Source: a virus
Lineage: Duplodnaviria > Heunggongvirae > Uroviricota > Caudoviricetes
Length of the DNA: 58,240 nt
Direction: 5' to 3' (one strand)
Virus record (IMG/VR): IMGVR_UViG_3300033075_001233
Coordinates: 64,001 to 122,240 of that record
Below are positions 3,672 to 37,678 of this stretch, piece after piece. The notes under the pieces are model-generated. The model did not search any database, was not told the origin of the DNA, and worked only from the letters and a program-made list of their open reading frames with translations. The position numbers and the translations under genes are program-made. The number at the start of each line of letters is the position of its first letter. Within the stretch, counting starts at the first letter, position 1.

Positions 3672-6497
3672 ATGAATTGTAACACTATGCCAAATATAAA
3701 TAATCCATGTCCAATATACGTAAAAGCTAAATGTGTAGTGTATACAGGCCCAAATCTGGACTGTATAGAGGCTACTACTAACGAGCGTTTGGATGCAATT
3801 TTATCAAAAATTAATGATAAATTGTGTTCAATAGGGACAGGTACATACATATCTAATGGTACTGACATTTCTGTTACAGGAAATGGTACAGAATTTAATC
3901 CATATGTTATTGCCTCTACGTATTCAGGATGGAACATTAGTGGTAATAGTAATACAACTTCTGCTAACTTCTTGGGAACCACTGTTTTACAATCATTAAT
4001 CTTTAAGGTAAACAGTATTCAGGCAGGTTACATTACAGCTATGCCCGGAGCTGCATCACAAAGCTCAGGAACTGTAACACTAGGTCAGTTTGCTGGTCAG
4101 AACCTTGGTTTCAATAATGGTGCAAACACCCTAATTGGGCATGGTGCAGGTTCTTTTTTAGTATTTAATCCATCTAAAGGTAATCAAAATACATTTATAG
4201 GACTTTGGGCAGGACATGCTACTAAATATAACAGTGATCCTTCAGGTGGTCGTAGTGTATTGGTTGGACAATCTACAGGATTTAGAAACTATAATGGATC
4301 ATCACTTACTTATGTTGGAACATTTGCAGGAGAATTAAATAACCAAGGTAATAGTAATACAGGATTAGGTAGGGACGCACTTCGTTCAAATATTGATGGT
4401 AGTTTTAATATTGCAGTGGGGGGATTAGCTTCTTTATATAACACTACAGGTATTAAAACTATTGCAGTTACAAATGGGGGAAGTGGATATACATTTGCAA
4501 ATGTAACTATTTCTGCCCCTCCTGCAATAAGCCCCGGTGTATATCAGGTGACGGCAACTGCTACAGCTACTGTTTCCGGTGGACAAGTAACAGGTATAAC
4601 AATAACTAATGCCGGAGGTGGTTATTCTCTCCTTACAGGAGAAGGTGATTTTCATACAGGTATTACAGTAACTATTACAGGAGATGGTACAGGAGCAACC
4701 GCATCTGTCACTGAAACTAAATCAGGAATAGGTAATACTACTTTAGGATTTGCTGCCGGAATGAATAATAATTACGGCAGTTATAATGTAAACATTGGTT
4801 ATCTTACAGGAAATAGAACAGAAGATAGTTATACAACATTAGTAGGAACATCAGCAGGAATAGGATCAGGAGCACCGACCACTGTAACAGGCGCAATAGC
4901 AATTGGATATAATTCTAAAGTTTCCGCTGATTATACTATGGCCCTTGGTGGAACAGGCTCATATGCTGTAAATGTAGGTATCAACACTGAAACTGCCAGA
5001 AAAAAGCTTGATGTCGTTGGTGGGGATATCTTAGTACATGAACATACTATAGGTAGAGGTGCTGGTTCAATTGCTACAAATACCGTATTTGGTACAAACG
5101 CATTAACAGTTAATACAAGCTCTTCCCCAAATAATGTTATAATAGGATATGAAGCTTCTAATACAGGTAATGTATCATATGGATATAATACAATTTTAGG
5201 ATATAGAGCAAATTATAGTGGTAGTTATAGTGGAGCAGCTAATACTATTATTGGTGCTGAAGCAGCTTATCTAAATCACGCTCAACAAGCAGTTGCTATA
5301 GGATTTAGAGCAATGTATACACAAGGTAGTAACGGATCAATAGCCATAGGTGCTTATTCTCTCTATAATAACGTTCATAATGGATTTAGTTCCAGACAAT
5401 GGAATACTGCTATTGGAGAATATTCCTTCTATAATTATGGAGGAGCAGGTTTAGCTCAAACCAATACTGGATATGGTGCATATTCTGGATATGGTATTAC
5501 AGCAGGTGATTATAACACATCTATAGGTGCTCTATCAATGGGTAAGGGATGGAGTGGTGTAGGTACAGCTGGTTCATCAGGAGGACATAATGTAGCTTTA
5601 GGACATGCAGCATTGTATTATATAAATAACTCTACCGGTAATATTGGGATAGGTTTTGGAGCTTTTAATGGAGCTACCTTTGCTCCCACAGTAGGATATA
5701 ATATTGGTATTGGATATAATGTAGGTACTCTGTTGACAACAGGTAACTATAACGTACTGATAGGTAGTACAACAGGTGCAAGCTATGCTACACTTTCAAA
5801 TTATATGATATTTGCTGATGGTCAAGGTAATGAAAGGTTTAATGTAAACAATTCTGGAAAAATGAGAATTTTCTCATATGGAGTTGGAACACATACAGGA
5901 ACACCTACATATAATCTTTCTGTAGATACTAATGGTAATGTTATAGAAACAGCAATACCAGCTACATCCTATACTTTTGCAAATGGCCTTACCGAGACAT
6001 CTGGAACAGTACATTTAGGTGGAGTCTTAATTGAAGATACTACAATAGATGGTTCTGAAAATATCTATGATATGACATTTGCTAGTATAAAAGCATTTGC
6101 TATTCAAGATACTTTAGAATTTAATATAAATACACTTGCCAGTGTAAACCAAGGAACTTCAATCAGAGGTAAAATTGCAATTAAAGGAGCTTCATCTCCT
6201 GCACAAATTACCGCAGATCAGAATGATTATTCACCTACAGACTTAAATTTAAATTCAGTACTTCGTCTCTCATCTGATGCCTCCCGAACAATTACAGGAT
6301 TAAATTTAGGGTATGAAGGAAGAATTATATATATTTTCAATATAGGTACAAATAATATTATACTTTCTAACGAAAATATATTATCTACCGCAGCAAATAG
6401 ATTCAAAATCGGATCAGATATTACAATAGCTGCTGATAAAGGAGTACAATTATGGTATGACATAACATCTAGCAGATGGAGAGCAGTAGCCATTTAA
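3672..6497 (+). CDS. Tail/head fibre protein with Gly/Asn-rich beta-roll (NTxxGxxA) repeats
   Basis: Cys-rich N-terminal anchor (CPIYVKAKCVVYTGPNLDC), many NTxIGxxA-like repeats and a GGSGY-type insert. Confidence 0.75.
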   Translation: MNCNTMPNINNPCPIYVKAKCVVYTGPNLDCIEATTNERLDAILSKINDKLCSIGTGTYISNGTDISVTGNGTEFNPYVIASTYSGWNISGNSNTTSANFLGTTVLQSLIFKVNSIQAGYITAMPGAASQSSGTVTLGQFAGQNLGFNNGANTLIGHGAGSFLVFNPSKGNQNTFIGLWAGHATKYNSDPSGGRSVLVGQSTGFRNYNGSSLTYVGTFAGELNNQGNSNTGLGRDALRSNIDGSFNIAVGGLASLYNTTGIKTIAVTNGGSGYTFANVTISAPPAISPGVYQVTATATATVSGGQVTGITITNAGGGYSLLTGEGDFHTGITVTITGDGTGATASVTETKSGIGNTTLGFAAGMNNNYGSYNVNIGYLTGNRTEDSYTTLVGTSAGIGSGAPTTVTGAIAIGYNSKVSADYTMALGGTGSYAVNVGINTETARKKLDVVGGDILVHEHTIGRGAGSIATNTVFGTNALTVNTSSSPNNVIIGYEASNTGNVSYGYNTILGYRANYSGSYSGAANTIIGAEAAYLNHAQQAVAIGFRAMYTQGSNGSIAIGAYSLYNNVHNGFSSRQWNTAIGEYSFYNYGGAGLAQTNTGYGAYSGYGITAGDYNTSIGALSMGKGWSGVGTAGSSGGHNVALGHAALYYINNSTGNIGIGFGAFNGATFAPTVGYNIGIGYNVGTLLTTGNYNVLIGSTTGASYATLSNYMIFADGQGNERFNVNNSGKMRIFSYGVGTHTGTPTYNLSVDTNGNVIETAIPATSYTFANGLTETSGTVHLGGVLIEDTTIDGSENIYDMTFASIKAFAIQDTLEFNINTLASVNQGTSIRGKIAIKGASSPAQITADQNDYSPTDLNLNSVLRLSSDASRTITGLNLGYEGRIIYIFNIGTNNIILSNENILSTAANRFKIGSDITIAADKGVQLWYDITSSRWRAVAI

Positions 6498-27469: not shown

Positions 27470-27992
27470 GAGTTTCTTTATCCATATCTGGAATGCTCCA
27501 GAGTTCTGCGTCTTTATCTAATTCAACATCAAGAAATAACTCTATCTCTTTTCTAAATTTCTCATTTTGAGAAAACACATCCCACTGAAAAGTAGGAATG
27601 TGTTTCATATATACTTTTACGGTTTTATCATAGCAACCTTTAATAAATTTGGAAAGTTTTGAATATTTACCTTGTTTAAATAATTCAAAATCCTTTTGTA
27701 AGTGGTCTGGTATTTTGTATATTAATACAACATATCCACCAGCATAATCATAATCCTCTTTAAAGTGGATATTTTCAAATTCCTGAGCGTTTAAAAATTG
27801 CTCAAATTGTTCAAAATCATGAGGTTTAAATAATATATACATATTATCTCCCCCATCTTCTTCTCTTAGTTTATCTTTAAGGTATGAATTAATTAATCCA
27901 TATTCGTTTTCAAGGTACGAGAAGTTCGATCCTGTTATAGGTTTTAGCAGAAATAGTGTACTGCAATTATGTTTAAAAAGTTCGTCGATCAT
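27405..27992 (-). CDS. Hypothetical protein
   Basis: ORF coupled to the exonuclease gene (TAATG). Confidence 0.6.
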   Translation of the reverse strand: MIDELFKHNCSTLFLLKPITGSNFSYLENEYGLINSYLKDKLREEDGGDNMYILFKPHDFEQFEQFLNAQEFENIHFKEDYDYAGGYVVLIYKIPDHLQKDFELFKQGKYSKLSKFIKGCYDKTVKVYMKHIPTFQWDVFSQNEKFRKEIELFLDVELDKDAELWSIPDMDKETLDIEKIKTTGNGKKSVTKSVR

Positions 27993-29122
27993 TAATTATA
28001 GTTTTCTAAAGCTATTATACCATTTTGTTCGTATGCCTTTTTACTGATATTCCAAATTTTACTTTCATTAGCCCATATAATATTATCAACTAATTCTTTT
28101 ATACCTCTAAATTTAGAAGAATTTATTGAAAATCCTTCCCAAGCATCATTAAGATGTTGATCGTTTAGTTTATAAATTAATGGTCTTCTGTTATTTTTAG
28201 AAGTATCTGCTGATATAAATTGATACGGTTCTAATTTATAATCGCTCAGTCCGTTGTTCATCATAAATGATGTAGCACCAACACTATACCAACCTCCCTG
28301 AATATAATATCTATTTTTTATATAATTAAATGGAAATAATGTATTATCATATGTTGATTTTAAATCATATGGGAATACAGATTTCTTATTATGATCTACA
28401 ATTAATAAATCTATTTCACATTTTCCTTTAATACTACCATTTTCACCTTTATACACAAAATCTATTGGAAATTTTGGTAATTTTTCAATTCCATCCACTT
28501 CATTCGTTAAATCTAATAATGATTTTGTAAAATCATCTTGAAGAAGGTATGATGAAATTTCTAGTGCTCTAAGTTTAAGTCCTTCACTTACAACAAGTTT
28601 GCCTATATTATCCATTTTGGATTTAAAATATTCAGCAGGACTCATTCCTGACTTATTTTTAGTATTAAAATCTTCTATCGCCCATTCTACAGTTTTACCT
28701 TTATATTTACCAGCTCTTTGAATATTTTCAAAGGCTTCTCTAAACCTAGGTTCAAATTCTTCTGTTACTTCTCCACTTACTATTGATCTCTTTGTTATCT
28801 TAAAGAGTTCATCAGCCAGCATGAATCCTTGCGCACTAGAAGAAGGTTCTCCTGTTAAAAGAGCATATCTATCACTAAATATTTGCTCAAATTCTGTAGC
28901 GTCTCCCTTAGCTGTAAGGAGTATATCATCAATTAAATTACCTAACAATGAGGAACTTGTATCCTCATCATCTTTTGGAAGTCCTAATATGAATTCTTCA
29001 TAGAATTTTACAGGACTTTTATCAAAAGTAACAATGCTACTATAATTTAATGCCTCGATTTTACGATATTCTACATCAGGTGTAGCTATTCTTTCACGCT
29101 TTAATTCCCCTTGTGCTCCCAT
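27992..29122 (-). CDS. PD-(D/E)XK exonuclease (RecE/ExoVIII-like)
   Basis: LNYSSI, LLGNLID..L, KCEIDLL...YDLKST, YYIQGGWY. Likely ATG at 29122. Confidence 0.8.
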   Translation of the reverse strand: MGAQGELKRERIATPDVEYRKIEALNYSSIVTFDKSPVKFYEEFILGLPKDDEDTSSSLLGNLIDDILLTAKGDATEFEQIFSDRYALLTGEPSSSAQGFMLADELFKITKRSIVSGEVTEEFEPRFREAFENIQRAGKYKGKTVEWAIEDFNTKNKSGMSPAEYFKSKMDNIGKLVVSEGLKLRALEISSYLLQDDFTKSLLDLTNEVDGIEKLPKFPIDFVYKGENGSIKGKCEIDLLIVDHNKKSVFPYDLKSTYDNTLFPFNYIKNRYYIQGGWYSVGATSFMMNNGLSDYKLEPYQFISADTSKNNRRPLIYKLNDQHLNDAWEGFSINSSKFRGIKELVDNIIWANESKIWNISKKAYEQNGIIALENYN

Positions 29123-29537
29123 GTTCAAATGTTGTTATTTTAACGAATCTATTACTTAATTTTGCATCTATTAATTTTGTATAGTTGCTAGGATATATAA
29201 GAAATGGATATATTTGAAATGTTGATTTTCTATATGAAAAAAAGTTATTATTACACCATTCTAAAAAACATTTCTTAGGCGTAGCTGGATTATCAATGGT
29301 TATACTTATAACGTTAGGATGATAATATACACGATTGTGTTCTACAACTAAAACAGTACGTGTTTCTCTATATTTTTCATATACTTTCCTAGCTAAAGCT
29401 TTTGTAAATTGATCCTTTTTACTACATTTTAAAATAAAAATATGTAATTTAGTCGGAGATTCTTCATCTACTTCAGCAAAAATAGCTAATCTTTTTCCTT
29501 TTTCATCGTATTTTGATAAATTACTAAAATATTTCAT
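29094..29537 (-). CDS. Hypothetical protein
   Basis: ORF packing. Confidence 0.5.
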   Translation of the reverse strand: MKYFSNLSKYDEKGKRLAIFAEVDEESPTKLHIFILKCSKKDQFTKALARKVYEKYRETRTVLVVEHNRVYYHPNVISITIDNPATPKKCFLEWCNNNFFSYRKSTFQIYPFLIYPSNYTKLIDAKLSNRFVKITTFEHGSTRGIKA

Positions 29538-30321: not shown

Positions 30322-31491
30322 TTAAAATCCTGATTCTTCACCTAAAGATGAAGGGGGAAATACAGGATCAACTGCCGCTATATATCTAATTTCAGGCATT
30401 GGACTACTATCACTAAAATATGTAGTTCTAATCGTATAATCAAGGGCTATATTAGAACCGTGATCCGATGCTACCACTGATGGTGAAGATGATTCTAATA
30501 CATCTTCTGCCCATTTCACTACATATTCAGTAGTATTACCAAAACTGGTTTTCATATATTCACCAAATTCCCTAATCAATTCATCTAATTTCTTATTGAT
30601 TTCCCTACTTGATTTACCTGTCACTTTATGTTTTTTAACAAAACAATTATCCAGTATAAACTGTTGAGGTACATTCCAAGTTTGATATCCTTTAGAAATA
30701 AGCTTATCTAACATTGATTTATGATATTTACGTACACTTTGACTACCACTAAATGATACATGATCTACATCATCATTTACTAAAATAATTACTTTAGAAG
30801 CATCCACTTTACCAGTAGCTAATATATGATATTTTTGATATAGATAATTCTCAGGAAGTACCACTGATATGTATGTAGGTATTGGTGGTACAGGCGATTC
30901 TATCATCTCATAATATAATGAATTATGAATATTAGTTAAACGAATAGTTCTACCTCTATATCTATATCTACCACAATAATCAGAAAATCCCATAAAATTA
31001 TTTATATCACCTATACTACGTGTATATGCATCAAAATAAGCATTTAAAGGAACCATATCTGAAATACTAATATATTTTTTTACATTTTCAGCTAATTTTG
31101 CAATTATTGTATCTAATGAAGAGCTATGACCTACTGTATGCAAATATCTACAAAACATATTTGGTAATACTTCGTTCTCTTTACTTTGTAATTTATAAAA
31201 ATTATGAGAATTACCTAAAATATAATTAATATCTGGTTTACTTAAAAAATCATTATCTAAGGTTAAAAATAGATAACTTAATGGTATAAAATCAGTATAT
31301 ACATTAATTAATCTTTCACTACCAAATTCGTCATCATCAACATTTACCTTTACCATAGTATTTAGATAATTGAGAGCTATATCTGAAGGAATTACATCTT
31401 CCTTATGACGTTTAAAGAATATACTTCTTTTTTTTGGTGCTCTCTTTTTAACCTCTTTTACAGGTTCTGCTAAAATGGTTTCGTCTGACAT
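30322..31491 (-). CDS. Hypothetical protein directly downstream of E1/ThiF
   Basis: 389-aa ORF overlapping the E1 3' end; no motif recognised. Confidence 0.6.
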   Translation of the reverse strand: MSDETILAEPVKEVKKRAPKKRSIFFKRHKEDVIPSDIALNYLNTMVKVNVDDDEFGSERLINVYTDFIPLSYLFLTLDNDFLSKPDINYILGNSHNFYKLQSKENEVLPNMFCRYLHTVGHSSSLDTIIAKLAENVKKYISISDMVPLNAYFDAYTRSIGDINNFMGFSDYCGRYRYRGRTIRLTNIHNSLYYEMIESPVPPIPTYISVVLPENYLYQKYHILATGKVDASKVIILVNDDVDHVSFSGSQSVRKYHKSMLDKLISKGYQTWNVPQQFILDNCFVKKHKVTGKSSREINKKLDELIREFGEYMKTSFGNTTEYVVKWAEDVLESSSPSVVASDHGSNIALDYTIRTTYFSDSSPMPEIRYIAAVDPVFPPSSLGEESGF

Positions 31492-32207
31492 AATTCTACA
31501 TCTTTAAGTTTATAATCAAAAATAGGAAGATACATTCTCTGATGAAAAGGTACATCCCTAAATTCCATAGCTAATTTACAATTTGTAAGAAAATTACATA
31601 AAACTGACGTTATTAATCCTCCAATAATCATAGCACTAAATGTAGTTTGCTTACTTGTACAATCTAAATCTGGAACATCTTTATCTTCAAAAAGCCATTT
31701 CTCCTGATATTCCTTTATAGCATCTTTATTATCATAATCCACCGCAAATATTTCAAGCGTTTCTAATAATAATCTGCCATCTATGAAAATGGCAGGCATA
31801 GGAGCTATATGTTTTCTTTCAGTTTCTACAAAAGACATCCAAGAATTAAATGCATTTTTTCTGGTTTCCATATTATCTAATGCACTTATACAAATACTAT
31901 CCATTTGTTCAGCATCTTCAAAATAATCAGCTATTGTAATTATATCATTACTACATCCAAGTTCAAGTATATTTTTTTTTACACATTCAACTTTTGGTTC
32001 ACCAATATTAGACTTTTTGTAAAATTGACCTCCTTTTACATTCGTTACATCTACAATATCTGGATCAATAATAGTAATATTGTGTCCTATTCTGGATAAA
32101 GCTAATGCTGTCCAACTACCTATACCTCCTACACCAATTAATGTAATATCTGTTTGCTGATCTGCCCAATCAGCACCACTCCATCTTGTTCCTTCGGCAA
32201 CACTCAT
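31470..32207 (-). CDS. E1-like (ThiF/MoeB/HesA) adenylating enzyme
   Basis: LIGVGGIGSW (GxGxxG), DPDIVDVTNV..Q, ISALDNMETR, FIDGR, and a Cys in DLDCTSKQ at the E1 catalytic-loop position. Confidence 0.9.
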   Translation of the reverse strand: MSVAEGTRWSGADWADQQTDITLIGVGGIGSWTALALSRIGHNITIIDPDIVDVTNVKGGQFYKKSNIGEPKVECVKKNILELGCSNDIITIADYFEDAEQMDSICISALDNMETRKNAFNSWMSFVETERKHIAPMPAIFIDGRLLLETLEIFAVDYDNKDAIKEYQEKWLFEDKDVPDLDCTSKQTTFSAMIIGGLITSVLCNFLTNCKLAMEFRDVPFHQRMYLPIFDYKLKDVELCQTKPF

Positions 32208-32209
32208 AA

Positions 32210-33532
32210 TTATATAATTTTATTTATTAATTCAATTTCTTCAGATATTACAGTAATCATTTCTGTTATCAGTCTTGATCTGAAAGAATATGGAAATAAA
32301 TAATCTTTAGTAATTTCCAGCAATTCGACAAAATCATCTGTACATTTATGAATATGAATTATGTCAAAATGTTCTGTCATAAGCATCTGAAAATCAATAA
32401 GATATGCATCCAATGCATCTTTTGTTAATAAAAGTTTATCTTGTTCAACAATCTTATCTATACAATCTCTGTAATCATCACCCAAATATGTAGAATCAAG
32501 AATAGAATTGAGAAAAGCTTTAGCGTGCCTTAATTCAAATGTAGGCTTTTTCTTTTTTTTCTGCTCTTTTTGATCTTTTTCAAATACATCTTTTGCAGCT
32601 TCCTCTTGTTCCCACCATTCTTTATCTGTCAACTCCATTATTTTCTTGGATTTTTTACGTCCATCCTTATCATATTTAGGACTGAGACTATATTCTTTAT
32701 CCACTTGATCTCCACTATCTTCGCTAAAATCAGGAAACATACTTCCTTGCATGAGTTTTCTTTGATATGCACTTCCTCCAGTACTTCCTCCATAATAACC
32801 TCCATATGACGGATATTTCTTTTTGTAAGCTTCCTCTTTCTTTTTCTTTTCCTCTTCGATCGCTGCTTTTACAACATTAAATCTTTCTTCAAATTCAGCA
32901 TCAACTGGAATATTTTTTTCTACTTCTATTCTGCAATCCATTACAACAAGTACTTCATTATCTTTTTCTCCAGATAATGTTAAAGGTTCAAAACCATCAG
33001 CATTATTTACAAAATGTAAACTTGTTCCTTTATCTGCTTCTTTTTTGCCCTTAAAAGCAACTTTTGCGCACCAATTACCATCAAAATTCACAATAAGCAT
33101 AAGGAAGTAATTACTTACCAGTGCTCTATCTTCAAGATTTTCCCAATCTGTACCACTAAAAAATGTAGTCATTCGGTGATGGGTGTGAATATGATGTAAT
33201 TTTTGTTTTCCTTCAAGAATATCAGGAAATTTATCGTATAATTCTATAATATCAGAGCTTTTAAATCCTGCTTTACCTACCTCATATCCAGTAAATCCGG
33301 ATGTACCTATATCAGCAAGAAACATATCTTCCGCTATTATAGTCCATTTATCTAAATCGTTAATTGTTCCTTCCTCTCTTGTTATTAATTCTCCACTCCA
33401 TTCAAAAGCTCCTACCTTATCATGTAAAAAATTAATTTTATTAACTAATGATTCAGTAATAATTAACTTAGGCTTGTTTGACAGTGGAAACCTCTCCAAA
33501 GATTTTTTCATAATTCCTTTGCTTGTACTCAT
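32210..33532 (-). CDS. JAB/JAMM (MPN+) metalloprotease with a long C-terminal extension
   Basis: Upstream Glu (FEWSG) and an exact HxH-x7-S-x2-D motif: HTHHRMTTFFSGTD. Confidence 0.88.
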   Translation of the reverse strand: MSTSKGIMKKSLERFPLSNKPKLIITESLVNKINFLHDKVGAFEWSGELITREEGTINDLDKWTIIAEDMFLADIGTSGFTGYEVGKAGFKSSDIIELYDKFPDILEGKQKLHHIHTHHRMTTFFSGTDWENLEDRALVSNYFLMLIVNFDGNWCAKVAFKGKKEADKGTSLHFVNNADGFEPLTLSGEKDNEVLVVMDCRIEVEKNIPVDAEFEERFNVVKAAIEEEKKKKEEAYKKKYPSYGGYYGGSTGGSAYQRKLMQGSMFPDFSEDSGDQVDKEYSLSPKYDKDGRKKSKKIMELTDKEWWEQEEAAKDVFEKDQKEQKKKKKPTFELRHAKAFLNSILDSTYLGDDYRDCIDKIVEQDKLLLTKDALDAYLIDFQMLMTEHFDIIHIHKCTDDFVELLEITKDYLFPYSFRSRLITEMITVISEEIELINKII

Positions 33533-34706
33533 CTTTTGTTTTTTTTAAATTAAATATTTCAAATTCTTCATATATAACTTTTGCATATTTTTCTATGACA
33601 GATACATCAAGTTTTGATTTTTCTGTTGTAATATCATTATACGCTCTAAACTTTATAACTTCACCATTTTTCCACGGTAGAATTGATGATCTCCTCTCTT
33701 CATTTATTATTTTTACCATTTCATCCGCTTCTTCTTTTTTATATCCTGAACCCCTTCTTAATTCTGAATATTTATCAAAATAATCATATACATCACTAAC
33801 ATCTTTTAATGATAATGTATCACCATCATATTGCCAATTTTTTCTATCAATTCCTTGTATTATATTTGATAAACATTTTCTAACTATAGCATCATCTATT
33901 GTTCTGGAATAAGTAATATCCCTCATAAATTTATAGGGGCCACCTTCTATACTTTCCCATTTAAGATAGTTTTCCAAAGACATAAACATTAAATTCCAGC
34001 AAGTTTCACTCATTTCCAGTTTAACATCCATAATTAAACGTGCAAAATCACTACTTCCAAGACAAAATGTTTCAAAACCATGTATAGCACTTCTAGATAA
34101 ATGACTATGTGCATAAGAAGATTCATATTCCTTTAAAGATGCAGTTAATCTTCTTCCTTGCATTTCAATATAACAACGATCAAATGAGCTATCAAGATTT
34201 ATTGTAAATTTAACATACAAATCCTGCATTTCATGTTTATCACCCCATGTGTTAGTTATATTTAAAACAGGGAAATGAATATATATACTATAAACTAAAT
34301 CATTATAGAATCTATCAATTTGTTCTTTAGAAATATATACACGATCTTCTCCAAAAATATCATTAACAATTGGTAAAATATCGTCAGGATGTACTAATTT
34401 ACCCTTTATACGAAGTGCTTCTATTGCATTTAGAACTTTTTTATTCCGAGATTTAAAAAATTTATCTATTTCGCTTCGCTCTTTAACAAATTCTTTAATT
34501 TGTGAATATTCAATAACTTTACTTATAGCACCTGTTTCAGGAATTTCAAAATTAAATATTTGACTAGCATCAGAAAATGCATTTACCTTATATATAGCAT
34601 CTTTAACTGCTATTCCTGATTGTATTAATTCACAATCATCATTTAATCGTATAAATATACCTATATCTATACTATAATCATTTAATTGTAATTTATCTTC
34701 TTCCAT
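33468..34706 (-). CDS. Prokaryotic E2/UBC-like protein
   Basis: Beta-meander then YAHSHL...TFCLGS (His upstream of a CL(G) Cys, as in E2 HPN...ICL), followed by WESIEGGPY; lies between the Ubl and JAB genes. Confidence 0.65.
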   Translation of the reverse strand: MEEDKLQLNDYSIDIGIFIRLNDDCELIQSGIAVKDAIYKVNAFSDASQIFNFEIPETGAISKVIEYSQIKEFVKERSEIDKFFKSRNKKVLNAIEALRIKGKLVHPDDILPIVNDIFGEDRVYISKEQIDRFYNDLVYSIYIHFPVLNITNTWGDKHEMQDLYVKFTINLDSSFDRCYIEMQGRRLTASLKEYESSYAHSHLSRSAIHGFETFCLGSSDFARLIMDVKLEMSETCWNLMFMSLENYLKWESIEGGPYKFMRDITYSRTIDDAIVRKCLSNIIQGIDRKNWQYDGDTLSLKDVSDVYDYFDKYSELRRGSGYKKEEADEMVKIINEERRSSILPWKNGEVIKFRAYNDITTEKSKLDVSVIEKYAKVIYEEFEIFNLKKTKDEYKQRNYEKIFGEVSTVKQA

Positions 34707-34721
34707 TCAATATTTTTAAAA

Positions 34722-34758
34722 TTAAAAAAAAAGCGGAAGATATTATATCTCCCGCTTT
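34722..34758 (-). terminator. Intrinsic terminator between the Ubl and E2 genes
   Basis: AAGCGGGAGATA-TAA-TATCTTCCGCTT followed by a long T run on the - strand. Confidence 0.8.
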
Positions 34759-34780
34759 ATCTTTTTTTTGAAAAAATCTA

Positions 34781-35212
34781 TTACATCATTGAACGAGCTT
34801 CATTCAGAGCTTCGTTACATTGAGCGCACTGCTCATCACTCAAATCTACATCGAAAAAATCTTCAATTACTTCTACGATTTCAGATTTCAATGCATTAAC
34901 TTCTTCGTTTGTAGCTTTAGATGCAGCTATAACAATTGCTTCAGCAATATCAGCACCAAGTTGTCTGGCTTGTGCTTCTGTCATACCAGCTTTATTTTTA
35001 GTAGGGATCAAATACACCCTGAAGTCGGTATCAGGAAGAGTAGCGTCATCCCTTGTGAGAGTAACGTTACCGGGTTTCAATACTGCTTCTACATCACCTG
35101 TAAGAAGGTCTGCAATTTGTTTTTTAAATTCACCCCACGTTGTTGCTGATGTGGATACTTGTTTTGCTTTGTTTGAAGCTGCGCTTGCTACGATTACATT
35201 TCTTGTTGACAT
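34781..35212 (-). CDS. Ubiquitin-like (beta-grasp) precursor: Ubl ending ..PTKNKAG76 plus a 67-aa helical extension
   Basis: Strand-strand-helix-strand pattern (RNVIV, KQVSTSATTWGEFKKQI, TLTRDDATLP, FRVYLIP) ending in Gly76; first gene upstream of E2-JAB-E1. Confidence 0.7.
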   Translation of the reverse strand: MSTRNVIVASAASNKAKQVSTSATTWGEFKKQIADLLTGDVEAVLKPGNVTLTRDDATLPDTDFRVYLIPTKNKAGMTEAQARQLGADIAEAIVIAASKATNEEVNALKSEIVEVIEDFFDVDLSDEQCAQCNEALNEARSMM

Positions 35213-35300: not shown

Positions 35301-35510
35301 TTAAAAAATCTCAGACTGTCTTAACGTTTTTATATTATTTGTTTGTTGTTGAGAATCAATATTATATCTTTTTTGAAGTTGTTTTACAAATGACATAATA
35401 TCTGATTCTTTCCCTTTAAGTTCTTGTAAATCATTCATTACCCACCAAAAGGCACGATGTTTAAATAGATCAGCTTTCGCTTCGATTATATCTTGTTCTC
35501 TTGTTTTCAT
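35301..35510 (-). CDS. Hypothetical protein
   Basis: TAATG coupling to UDG. Confidence 0.5.
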   Translation of the reverse strand: MKTREQDIIEAKADLFKHRAFWWVMNDLQELKGKESDIMSFVKQLQKRYNIDSQQQTNNIKTLRQSEIF

Positions 35511-36292
35511 TAAAATGGAAGAGATTTGTCTAAAAATTCATTATAATCCCAATATATCTCTATATCGTTATTAGCTTTTAGAATTTTAGCGGTTTTTGAA
35601 AATACATTATCTGCAAGCCATTCTTCATTTCTATTCCTCGCTGCAAAAGAAGGATGGTCTGTTTCTAGTATATAGTTACCTAATGGATTTATATACTTTT
35701 TTAATTTTCTAGCATACGCTCCCATTAGTATATACACTATACCAGTAGTACTATATAAAGCATTCTGAAATAAATGTTTCTGAAAAGATTCCCATAAATT
35801 AGCTGTAGGAAATACATCTTTACTTAGTTTTAGATGACTTTCTATTCTATTTTTTTCAACAGTAAGGCTTGTATTTAACAATAATACACCTTGTTCAGAT
35901 AAAAAATCTAAATTTGTTGAATATTTTAAATTTTCTAATTTAAGATCATTCTGTATTCCATGCCATAAATATTTCAAGGATGGTTGCATCTCTATATCTC
36001 CAGTGTAACTATTACTAAAGGCTAAGCCATCAGCTATAATTTTTCCATTTTTCACTGTAGAATATGGTTCCATACCTATAATTACAACACTCAATTCATT
36101 ATATTTACATTTATTAAATGCATTATATGTATCGGCATATATAGGAAATATATCAATTCCTTTATTACTACGAAACTTTAAATATTGATATATATTATAT
36201 GCATCCTCAGTTTCAAAGAAATCCTTCATTTTAGGCCACCACGATTCATGAAATTTTGGCTCAAATTTGCTTATATCCAGCTTATTACTCAT
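35510..36292 (-). CDS. ung: Family-1 uracil-DNA glycosylase-like protein
   Basis: VVIIGMEPY (GQDPY variant), DGLAFS, QPSL, QGVLLLNTSLTV, HPS. Confidence 0.88.
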   Translation of the reverse strand: MSNKLDISKFEPKFHESWWPKMKDFFETEDAYNIYQYLKFRSNKGIDIFPIYADTYNAFNKCKYNELSVVIIGMEPYSTVKNGKIIADGLAFSNSYTGDIEMQPSLKYLWHGIQNDLKLENLKYSTNLDFLSEQGVLLLNTSLTVEKNRIESHLKLSKDVFPTANLWESFQKHLFQNALYSTTGIVYILMGAYARKLKKYINPLGNYILETDHPSFAARNRNEEWLADNVFSKTAKILKANNDIEIYWDYNEFLDKSLPF

Positions 36293-37272
36293 ATTACTCC
36301 TTTATTAATTAAACATTCTTTCCACGCATCTCTACCAAATCTTTTTTCCAAACTATAAGGATCGTTTATATCTGGAAGTAGTGATTTAGGAGGATTTACC
36401 CAATTCCATCCATATTCTTGTGTAAGAATAACAGATTGCTCAACTCCTTGAGGATCAGAGCCAAATGCTACCCATATATTATCTGCAAGATTATTAATCT
36501 GATCAGCTACAGACATAGTTATTTTAGCACTTTCATTTTGTGTTGCAATAACACATTCTGTAAATATAGAAGTACAAAGTAGGTCTTTCATACTCTTTAT
36601 AAGTACAAGTTTATTACAATGTCCTATATTATTAATATTCCATAGGTAATTATTAGGTACATTTCCTCTAAATTTCTCACCTTTTTCTCTTTCGGGAAAG
36701 TATATCTTCACTTTATCAATATCTTCAGCGTAGTAAGCAAATACCACCTCATTATCACCAATTCTCACTCTTCGTCTATTAATAGCTAACTCTTTGACAG
36801 CAAATGTGTTATATTTTCTTGCATGTTGTTCATCTACATCTGTACCTTCCCAGAATTGATAATGTTCTTTTCTCCACTTTTTTTCAGAAAATCCAATGTG
36901 TATTTCGCTAGGTTCATATATTGGAGCTTTATCTATAATTTGTATAGGGCGATATTCTCTCGTTGTTTGGGATATTCCCAAATCCTGACATATCTTATCT
37001 ATAGCCTCTCTATTTGAGAGAGAATACTTCTTTTTTACAAATTTTAATGCGTCACCAGCATCATCGTTTGAGAAATCTTTGTACATCCATATATTATCTC
37101 TTGAAAAGATAGTAAAGGATGGATGTCTGTCTCGTCTTAAAGGACTTGGAAAAGCCCTACTCACTGGAAATTTACTAATTTCAATAAAAAATACATCCCA
37201 TCCACCACTAGTGACAGATAGGATGTATTCCCATGTTATAGGAGATTGTTTTATTTCTCCTTTTGCTCCCAT
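36289..37272 (-). CDS. DNA primase (DnaG-like, crAss-type)
   Basis: SPLRRDRHPSF...YKDF N-domain, KIYFP, TOPRIM-like KSMKD...SDPQG, KDP-like NDP. ATG at 37272 lies 1 nt after the upstream stop. Confidence 0.8.
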   Translation of the reverse strand: MGAKGEIKQSPITWEYILSVTSGGWDVFFIEISKFPVSRAFPSPLRRDRHPSFTIFSRDNIWMYKDFSNDDAGDALKFVKKKYSLSNREAIDKICQDLGISQTTREYRPIQIIDKAPIYEPSEIHIGFSEKKWRKEHYQFWEGTDVDEQHARKYNTFAVKELAINRRRVRIGDNEVVFAYYAEDIDKVKIYFPEREKGEKFRGNVPNNYLWNINNIGHCNKLVLIKSMKDLLCTSIFTECVIATQNESAKITMSVADQINNLADNIWVAFGSDPQGVEQSVILTQEYGWNWVNPPKSLLPDINDPYSLEKRFGRDAWKECLINKGVI

Positions 37273-37273
37273 T

Positions 37274-37678
37274 TTAAATATATCTTTTAACCATTTTTTG
37301 AATAAATGAATCAATATCTCTTATATCGCCATCAATAGTACCAATATGAATATCGTCTATTATAGTAGATAAACTAGGTACGGGTTTTATATAACTATCC
37401 TGTAAATATAACTTAATTCTGGAAATAAGATTATCATCAATTTGATGACAATATGTAATCTTATAATCATCTTTAAACTTTGCAACCAACATCTTTTTTA
37501 AAACACTTATTTCTTCATCTATTTTATTTTTTTGACTAACTAGCTTATTAATTCTATCAATTCTTCTAGCCATAAATTCTTCATCTTTTTTTGGAAGTTG
37601 TCTTTTTGGAGACTCTAATAAAAGACGATCCTGTATCCTTTTAGCTAATGCTTTTGTCTGATTACTATTCAGTTTCAT
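37274..37678 (-). CDS. Hypothetical protein
   Basis: ORF packing. Confidence 0.55.
   Translation of the reverse strand: MKLNSNQTKALAKRIQDRLLLESPKRQLPKKDEEFMARRIDRINKLVSQKNKIDEEISVLKKMLVAKFKDDYKITYCHQIDDNLISRIKLYLQDSYIKPVPSLSTIIDDIHIGTIDGDIRDIDSFIQKMVKRYI

Follow-up and report, generated by a model that had tools for sequence, protein, structure and literature searches.

A candidate ubiquitin-like activation and conjugation pathway in the replication-gene block of crAss-like phages

Conjugation of ubiquitin-like proteins (Ubls) in bacteria has so far been described as an anti-phage weapon, in the Bil, Bub and type II CBASS (anti-phage signalling based on cyclic oligonucleotides) systems. Could phages run a pathway of this kind themselves? 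The question is raised by a gene cassette in IMG/VR virus record IMGVR_UViG_3300033075_001233, from which we analysed a stretch of 58,240 nucleotides (referred to as a whole as the window); on grounds that include synteny, the source virus is an uncultured crAss-like phage. A first-pass annotation of the window had read four consecutive minus-strand genes as a Ubl, an E2, a JAB peptidase and an E1. All four open reading frames (ORFs) are present as given, and the codons singled out for Gly76 of the Ubl (34987-34985, GGT), Cys215 of the E2-like protein (34064-34062, TGT) and Cys183 of the E1 (31661-31659, TGT) are the right ones, although a conserved fifth gene was overlooked. The reading that we favour, with a probability of about 0.65, is that the cassette encodes a pathway for Ubl activation and conjugation, probably through thioesters, and that this pathway belongs to the core of the crAss-like replication-gene block. 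The cassette consists of the following ORF calls.

34781-35212, minus strand, Ubl precursor gene, 143 aa
33468-34706, minus strand, E2-like gene, 412 aa
32210-33532, minus strand, JAB/JAMM metallopeptidase gene, 440 aa (the database gene call begins at M8, giving 433 aa)
31470-32207, minus strand, E1 (ThiF fold) gene, 245 aa
30322-31491, minus strand, fifth cassette gene, 389 aa

From the Ubl gene to the fifth gene the junctions are operon-like: the first is a gap of 74 nt, the second an overlap of 65 nt, the third a gap of 2 nt and the fourth an overlap of 22 nt at the E1 stop.

Synteny across related phages had been proposed as a check on the initial reading. We retrieved 80 viral contigs via the E2-like protein and based all synteny counts on them. 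The order Ubl-E2-JAB-E1 on one strand recurs in 71 of the 80, and each of the four genes is an ORF by itself, with a start and a stop of its own, both here and across these loci. Among the other nine, four loci stop at a contig edge, two begin within the E2 gene and three have no Ubl profile match. Inspection of two of these three (L033 and L059) revealed a Ubl precursor upstream that the profile threshold had missed; the third (L035) shares its gene coordinates with L033 and was not separately inspected. The same set is present, beside primase and uracil-DNA glycosylase (UDG) genes, as Gp79-Gp76 of crAss001 and as gp53-gp50 of Flavobacterium phage FpV4. In crAss001 the four proteins are annotated, in that order, as hypothetical, hypothetical, ‘metalloprotease’ and ‘thiamine biosynthesis protein ThiF’. 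The recurrent order, taken with the invariance of the key residues described below, is far beyond chance; judged on these comparisons, the cassette belongs to the core features of crAss-like phages and is no peculiarity of one phage.

The Ubl precursor divides into two parts.

35212-34985, minus strand, residues 1-76, beta-grasp domain ending T-K72-N-K74-A-G76
34984-34784, minus strand, residues 77-143, helical pro-tail of 67 aa (AlphaFold2 model)

Fold model, fold matches and alignment all agree with the earlier description of the 143-aa protein as a beta-grasp domain that ends TKNKAG at residue 76 and is followed by a 67-aa extension. The AlphaFold2 (AF2) model (predicted local distance difference test, pLDDT, 82) has a beta-beta-alpha-beta-beta-beta order over residues 4-70 and three helices in the tail; confidence is low at residues 73-75, and residues 71-78 form a flexible linker between domain and tail. 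Foldseek comparison of the model with the PDB yielded nearly all beta-grasp structures (MoaD, ubiquitin, DIX and Dsk2-Ubl; probability approx. 1.0, E approx. 3e-3, template-modelling score by target 0.5-0.64). Against Swiss-Prot models, the best matches were UBL4B, the Ubl domain of TBCB, RnfH and ISG15, the top three with E < 1e-3. Pfam and PADLOC scans of the protein found nothing real.

Conservation of the glycine, a second check that had been suggested, proved complete in the alignment of 26 homologues (approx. 145 aa), where P70, K72, N73, K74 and G76 are all invariant and an indel hotspot lies right behind the Gly. Across the 80 related loci, K-x-K-[SA]-G closes the Ubl domain in all of the more than 70 relatives examined, and crAss001 Gp79 (KKIKSG) and FpV4 gp53 (PKQVKSG) match this ending. 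Ubiquitin is likewise 76 residues long and ends R72-L-R74-G-G76; K72, K74 and the terminal Gly76 of the phage domain correspond in position to its R72, R74 and Gly76. The tail behind the Gly is 0-5 aa long in 13 loci (KNKAG-K and KVKSG-F are examples of near-tail-less proteins), 22-23 aa in some and 50-120 aa in many, with a maximum of 266 aa. An unchanging end of the domain, followed by an appendage that is free to vary, would be expected if the Gly were the mature, reactive C-terminus. This series of tail lengths at a conserved Gly has the pattern of a precursor that is processed there, and constitutes the strongest new evidence.

The tails have features of their own. Long tails often open, directly past the Gly, with a helix motif [ST]-[YF]-x-[ED]-[LI]-[RK] (for example SYNELRSLG, TYNDLRSH, SYKEIKSAIK and SYKQLRAAI), whose recurrence suggests a conserved small tail domain. 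Long-tailed precursors in related loci are illustrated by L067:4782-5396, L072:3542-4153, L002:3775-4644 and L033:4760-5626. We considered a SAP/HeH DNA-binding motif for the long tails and rejected it, having found no SAP/HeH or other Pfam match. In the clade of the window, the tail (34784-34984) is predicted to form three helices and carries an I-E-D-F-F-G-V block and a mostly conserved C-P-E-C pair, here C-A-Q-C (C129 and C132). One related locus, L005, has two tandem Ubl precursor genes (4793-5239, 148 aa; 5311-5784, 157 aa), both with the TKNKAG end, and a single E2-JAB-E1 set downstream.

The JAB/JAMM protein begins with an MPN+ domain (approx. residues 1-220), which a low-complexity linker joins to a helical domain at the C-terminus. 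The exact E...HxH-x7-S-x2-D motif reported in the first reading is located at E44...H116-T-H118-x7-S126-x2-D129 and is kept in every full-length member of a 36-sequence family sample. Eight of these 36 members matched Pfam Prok-JAB (PF14464; best E 2.9e-4), and an Atlas feature search with the N-terminal 230 residues returned Prok-JAB clusters at 0.95. The window protein itself falls below Pfam detection and gave nothing in PADLOC, while PDB sequence and family-profile searches matched no solved MPN structure. We therefore base the JAB assignment on the exact conserved motif, the Prok-JAB matches of the relatives and the Atlas placement.

Inserts of 0.4-1.2 kb interrupt the JAB or E1 gene in 13 of the 80 related loci (L005, L006, L009, L010, L022, L029, L036, L047, L050, L051, L052, L061 and L078). 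Two of them have a complete group I intron (Rfam) at the JAMM-coding part of the JAB gene (L052:7295-7550, 83 bits; L078:7209-7662, 80 bits). Group I introns favour conserved, functionally important sites.

The E1 has one ThiF domain (PF00899; E 6.4e-17, above the curated cut-off). Its residues include G25-x-G27-G28-x-G30, R39, D48, D50, N56, Q61, K72, D111, R116 and D143-G-R145, and an alignment of 43 homologues showed G25, G27, S31, D50, N56, Q61, K72, D111, R116, R145, Y167, C183 and K186 to be invariant. Of 63 distinct homologues, 98% have Cys183, which lies inside the motif LF-D-x-E-x5-C-[ST]-x-K-x-T and together with Tyr167 marks the presumed crossover-loop region. The ThiF fold, the conserved adenylation residues and Cys183 thus confirm the earlier call of an E1/ThiF protein with a GxGxxG motif and a loop Cys. 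A profile search of the PDB matched UBA5, MccB, TcdA, ThiF, MoeB and UBA3 about equally (E approx. 1e-12), over the nucleotide-binding half only; Cap2 was also among the PDB matches, and in PADLOC the protein matched Cap2-type ‘E1-E2’ models through their E1 part alone. By these comparisons, the protein is a minimal single-domain enzyme of no specific known subfamily. ThiF has 251 aa and its Cys at position 184; the window E1 (245 aa, Cys183) is close to it in both size and Cys position, and homologues in related viral loci mostly have 220-260 aa. Some homologues of approx. 380 aa carry an N-terminal extension of approx. 150 residues ahead of the ThiF domain (L001:7197-8348, which is crAss001 Gp76; L059:7983-9137; L065:7998-9143), an extension that is absent from the 245-aa E1 of the window.

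The E2-like protein calls for the most caution, and its identity as an E2 is the weakest claim made for the cassette. The AF2 model, built from a 102-sequence alignment (pLDDT 93, predicted template-modelling score 0.85), shows an N-terminal SH3-like domain (approx. 8-80), a UBC-fold core (approx. 95-265, with helices continuing to approx. 355) and a C-terminal helical region. The core carries H200-S201-H202, Cys215 and W250-E-S-x-E-G-G-P257. Its elements (helix 107-118; strands 138-151, 157-171, 178-186 and 188-190; Y198-x-H-S-H202; Cys215; helices from 220) follow the UBC order, with HPN swapped for HSH. At 50% identity this large family comprises 3221 clusters, of which 2834 lie below E 1e-10, and across 102 diverse members Y198, S201, H202, C215, W250, E251, S252 and P257 are invariant and H200 is invariant or nearly so. 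The invariance of Cys215, His200, His202 and Ser201 over so diverse a set suggests catalysis rather than a passive scaffold.

Structural comparison of the model supports a UBC assignment. A wide search with VIA-align, carried out independently of Foldseek over 48,161 chains, separated the SH3-like region at approx. 8-80 (Z up to 6.6) from a region at approx. 90-350, for which approx. 20 of the 50 rows listed were E2, RWD or UEV structures (Z 4.5-5.7). When VIA-align was applied to Foldseek's top 1000 chains, approx. 45 of the 50 rows listed were canonical E2s, among them UBE2S, UbcH8, UbcH7, Rad6, Ubc13, UbcH5b and Cdc34 (Z 4.8-5.9, root mean square deviation 3.1-4.7 Å over 118-137 residues); these alignments span most of the approx. 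150-residue UBC domain, though Z-scores below 8 can reflect a common arrangement. Matches in AlphaFold Database clusters were RWD, RBR and UBC proteins (top probability 0.98-1.00). Foldseek comparison with the PDB gave weak rows only, the Atlas fold search was uninformative, and Atlas feature matches to Prok-E2_D clusters (0.84-0.88) serve as leads only. It is likely, on the strength of the model, that the core of the 412-aa protein has the E2 (UBC) fold, and somewhat less so that the protein functions as an E2. The earlier E2-like reading of this protein, made from HSHL...FCLG, has accordingly gained a UBC-fold model and an invariant Cys215. The Cys residues that it singled out in both E1 and E2 are indeed conserved, although the invariant Ser201 of the E2 and Tyr167 of the E1 escaped notice.

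The SH3-like domain (34467-34685 in the window) is lost or replaced in many relatives, whose profile matches often begin near position 104; from the model, it may be a target-binding module.

The fifth gene, which most loci have behind the E1, belongs to a family that accounts for 47 of the 66 distinct ORFs found directly downstream of E1 in related loci; the family is linked by BLAST and includes both the 389-aa ORF of the window and FpV4 gp49. Within it only P70 and Y112 are nearly invariant, and there is no invariant Ser or His and no set of catalytic-type residues. The window protein gave no Pfam, PDB or Atlas match, and 36 family members gave no Pfam match.

What surrounds the cassette? 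Domain scans identified the following genes in its flanks, together with the gene for an HNH protein.

35510-36292, UDG gene
36289-37314, DnaG-type primase gene
27992-29128, PD-(D/E)XK nuclease gene

The cassette thus sits within the replication block, with primase and UDG on one side and the PD-(D/E)XK nuclease on the other, in keeping with its original placement between recombination and replication genes. This position and the near-universal presence of the cassette speak for a function central to the infection cycle, as opposed to an accessory one. Three replication or recombination proteins that flank the cassette share the N-terminal peptide MGA(K/Q)G(E/D)xK.

38608, minus strand, 306-aa protein
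37269, minus strand, primase (internal Met)
29119, minus strand, PD-(D/E)XK nuclease

For the primase, the start of the ORF is probably this internal Met. The peptide was considered as a Ubl acceptor tag and rejected, as it is missing from the crAss001 and FpV4 counterparts.

How might the components work together? Folds, catalytic motifs, conservation, gene order and the precursor pattern were established in silico; the chemical steps, the thioester route and the targets are what we infer from them. The Ubl would first be a precursor, its Gly76 blocked by the C-terminal tail. The JAB/JAMM enzyme would cut directly behind K-x-K-[AS]-Gly76 to free the Gly carboxylate, and might also reverse conjugates. 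The minimal E1, probably a homodimer of the ThiF/UBA5 type, would adenylate Gly76 with ATP and load the Ubl onto Cys183, from where it would be handed to Cys215 of the UBC-fold protein and placed on a target lysine through an isopeptide bond. The cassette, like Bil, encodes no E3, so target choice may fall to the SH3-like and C-terminal domains of the E2 or involve the fifth protein. The location of the cassette between the primase/UDG and recombination nuclease genes leads us to favour phage replication and recombination proteins, or host proteins met early, as targets.

Several observations weigh against this pathway. The assignment of the E2 relies on moderate structural scores (best Z 5.9), and no Pfam, PADLOC or PDB match was obtained with the E2-like protein, with the 102 family members (no E2 model) or with the family profile. 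Cys215, as read from the model, lies only approx. 5 residues before the next helix, nearer than in canonical E2s. Prediction of a complex of an E1 dimer with Ubl(1-76) and E2(95-412) gave a score of 0.01 for the E2 as partner, a value that counts neither way. The invariant E1 Tyr167 and the His-flanked Ser201 of the E2 are compatible with oxyester chemistry of the Bub kind as well as with a thioester route. Sulfur-transfer enzymes of the host could act in trans. Finally, the public sequencing runs that contain the locus derive from river and wastewater DNA, with no RNA run among them.

The points that concern the E2 lend themselves to a different arrangement, in which the E1 conjugates the Ubl directly, and the 412-aa protein has another part to play, as target, adaptor or unrelated enzyme on a UBC/RWD-like scaffold. 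Direct conjugation by an E1 is known from archaeal SAMP/UbaA and from Thermus TtuB/TtuC. The E2 call has moderate structural support and none from sequence, the non-catalytic RWD and UEV domains that appear among the matches share a UBC-like fold, and the predicted complex gave no verdict on the E2. Against such an E2-independent system, Cys215, His200, His202 and Ser201 of the 412-aa protein are wholly or nearly invariant, and every cassette has the gene for it, in the position between the Ubl and JAB genes that the E2 occupies in Bil. We consider it unlikely.

Could the cassette instead serve sulfur transfer? The Ubl would then be a carrier of the ThiS/MoaD/CysO type, with a Gly76 that is adenylated and thiocarboxylated, and phage DNA, tRNA or a cofactor would receive the thio-modification; JAB would mature the carrier, in the way that Mec+ matures CysO, and the sulfur would be used by the Cys/His protein. 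ThiF, MoeB and TcdA are among the best E1 matches, MoaD is among the top fold matches of the Ubl, and relatives are publicly annotated as ‘thiamine biosynthesis protein’. The DNA-metabolism block is also where, we infer, phage DNA-modification genes often sit. However, the 73-kb record (approx. 63% complete) gave no match for a rhodanese (PF00581) or a cysteine desulfurase (PF00266), and neither is fused to the E1, which agrees with the earlier remark that sulfur-transfer genes are lacking nearby; host enzymes could supply the sulfur. ThiS and MoaD carriers end in Gly-Gly, whereas the phage Ubl ends K-x-K-[AS]-G. The partner protein has a predicted UBC fold, and the gene order equals that of the conjugating Bil operons. 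A sulfur carrier is on this evidence improbable.

The cassette might alternatively be aimed at host defences, with JAB stripping host Ubl or cGAS conjugates, or with phage parts competing with components of Bil, Bub or type II CBASS. Comparable host systems act on phages by conjugation: Bil tags the central tail fibre of phages (10.1101/2023.09.04.556158) and Cap2 conjugates cGAS; the parts of the cassette and their order are the same. For a pure eraser, though, JAB alone would suffice, and the cassette, a fixed core feature of thousands of diverse phages, has replication genes for neighbours instead of variable accessory ones. Nor did PADLOC detect any sequence similarity to its CBASS or other defence models for JAB, E2 or Ubl. 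Counter-defence as a decoy or eraser is, in our view, quite improbable.

That the Ubl is a cleavable chaperone, which folds or delivers a functional tail for release by JAB with no conjugation at all, has the long, partly conserved tails with their [ST]-[YF]-x-[ED]-[LI]-[RK] motif and the phage Ubl and JAB precedent of lambda/T1 proteins I and K (PMC1779556) in its favour, but is very hard to reconcile with the full cassette kept by the 13 relatives with 0-5-residue tails and with an ever-present E1 whose adenylation residues are intact and whose Cys is invariant.

We return to activation and conjugation as the favoured function. If this is true, viruses of bacteria encode a complete cascade of E1, E2, deubiquitinase (DUB) and Ubl, and the phage side uses the same chemistry as the bacterial weapon, through genes that are a constant part of the replication module in a very large and abundant group of phages; control of the phage's own replication and action on the host are possible uses. 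crAss-like phages are among the most abundant human gut viruses and are common in water. None of the literature that we searched describes the cassette in crAss-like phages, and complete Ubl-E2-JAB-E1 sets are described in the searchable literature only as bacterial anti-phage defences; a 2026 gut-virome preprint mentions an E1-like phage protein family in passing. The E2-like family includes members from the cultured crAss001 and from Flavobacterium psychrophilum phages, and with crAss001 and FpV4 in culture the cassette is directly testable. The labels that these proteins bear at present in crAss001 and FpV4 are ‘thiamine biosynthesis’, ‘metalloprotease’ and ‘hypothetical’.

Among known systems, the order Ubl-E2-JAB-E1 is that of the Bil operons (PMC10557695), and the four parts and their order are identical in the cassette and in Bil (Types I and II). 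The Bil Ubl is cleaved by its own JAB right after a conserved Gly (PMC10557695), as is the Bub Ubl (PMC11601596). The cassette also shares with Bil a conserved Ubl Gly followed by residues that JAB removes (or would remove, in the phage), an E2 Cys with a nearby His and the lack of an E3 gene, the E2 being thought to pick targets. The differences are nonetheless considerable. The Bil E1 is a large, multidomain protein with inactive and active adenylation domains and a separate catalytic Cys domain (PMC11601596), whereas the cassette E1 is a single domain of 245 aa. Bil tails beyond the Gly have at most 9 residues, compared with 67 here and 0-266 in the relatives. Bil operons lie in bacterial defence islands with CapH/CapP regulators, and the cassette in the replication block of lytic-type phages, with an extra conserved fifth gene. 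We found no sequence similarity of the Ubl, E2 or JAB to Bil, either in PADLOC (PADLOC 2.0 may not include Bil models) or in comparisons of the JAB and E2 families with the PDB, which contains solved Bil structures. The cassette thus resembles Bil in parts and order, yet is not a member of it.

Type I Bub (6E.1/DUF6527; BubAB, BubCD and BubE) offers a different set of likenesses: a minimal E1 of the homodimer type beside a JAB, a Ubl with a large C-terminal extension that JAB cuts off (or would cut off, in the phage) after a conserved Gly, and a fifth component. Bub forms oxyester intermediates on an E1 Tyr and an E2 Ser-His (PMC11601596), and the cassette has an invariant Tyr in the E1 loop and an invariant Ser-His in its E2-like protein. 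Bub is, however, built from Ubl-E2 and JAB-E1 fusions where the cassette has four separate genes, and its E1 lacks the loop Cys and its E2 has Ser for Cys, while Cys183 and Cys215 of the cassette are invariant. BubE belongs to the DUF6527 Ser-His proteases; the fifth cassette protein has neither conserved catalytic residues nor a Pfam match.

Type II CBASS Cap2/Cap3 uses E1, E2 and JAB chemistry, as is proposed for the cassette, whose E1 matches Cap2 models and structures. Cap2 differs in being a fused E1-E2 that conjugates the C-terminus of a cGAS-like enzyme, with no gene for a beta-grasp substrate. The Ubl and JAB pair of lambda/T1, the sole phage precedent in the literature searched, comprises a Ubl (protein I) with a conserved C-terminal Gly and a further domain, adjoining a JAB (protein K) (PMC1779556); this pair has no E1 or E2, belongs to the tail-assembly module and is thought to act in processing only. 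With ThiS-ThiF, MoaD-MoeB and SAMP-UbaA-HvJAMM1, the cassette has in common a minimal E1 of approx. 250 aa with a loop Cys and a small beta-grasp substrate, and in the archaeal case also a JAMM partner. These systems differ from it in having no UBC-fold partner, a Gly-Gly carrier end and linked sulfur-transfer or cofactor genes.

Taken at its widest, the proposal is that crAss-like phages run their own complete Ubl pathway as a core replication function, in which a 76-residue modifier made from variable precursors is attached to phage replisome or recombination proteins, or to proteins of the host, and that this pathway is the likely evolutionary partner or source of Bil and Bub. We judge the arguments for and against that larger picture to be evenly balanced. 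The comparison bears on origins in any case, since the phage version combines a Bil-like gene order, a minimal E1 like those of Bub and UBA5 and the classical Cys residues.

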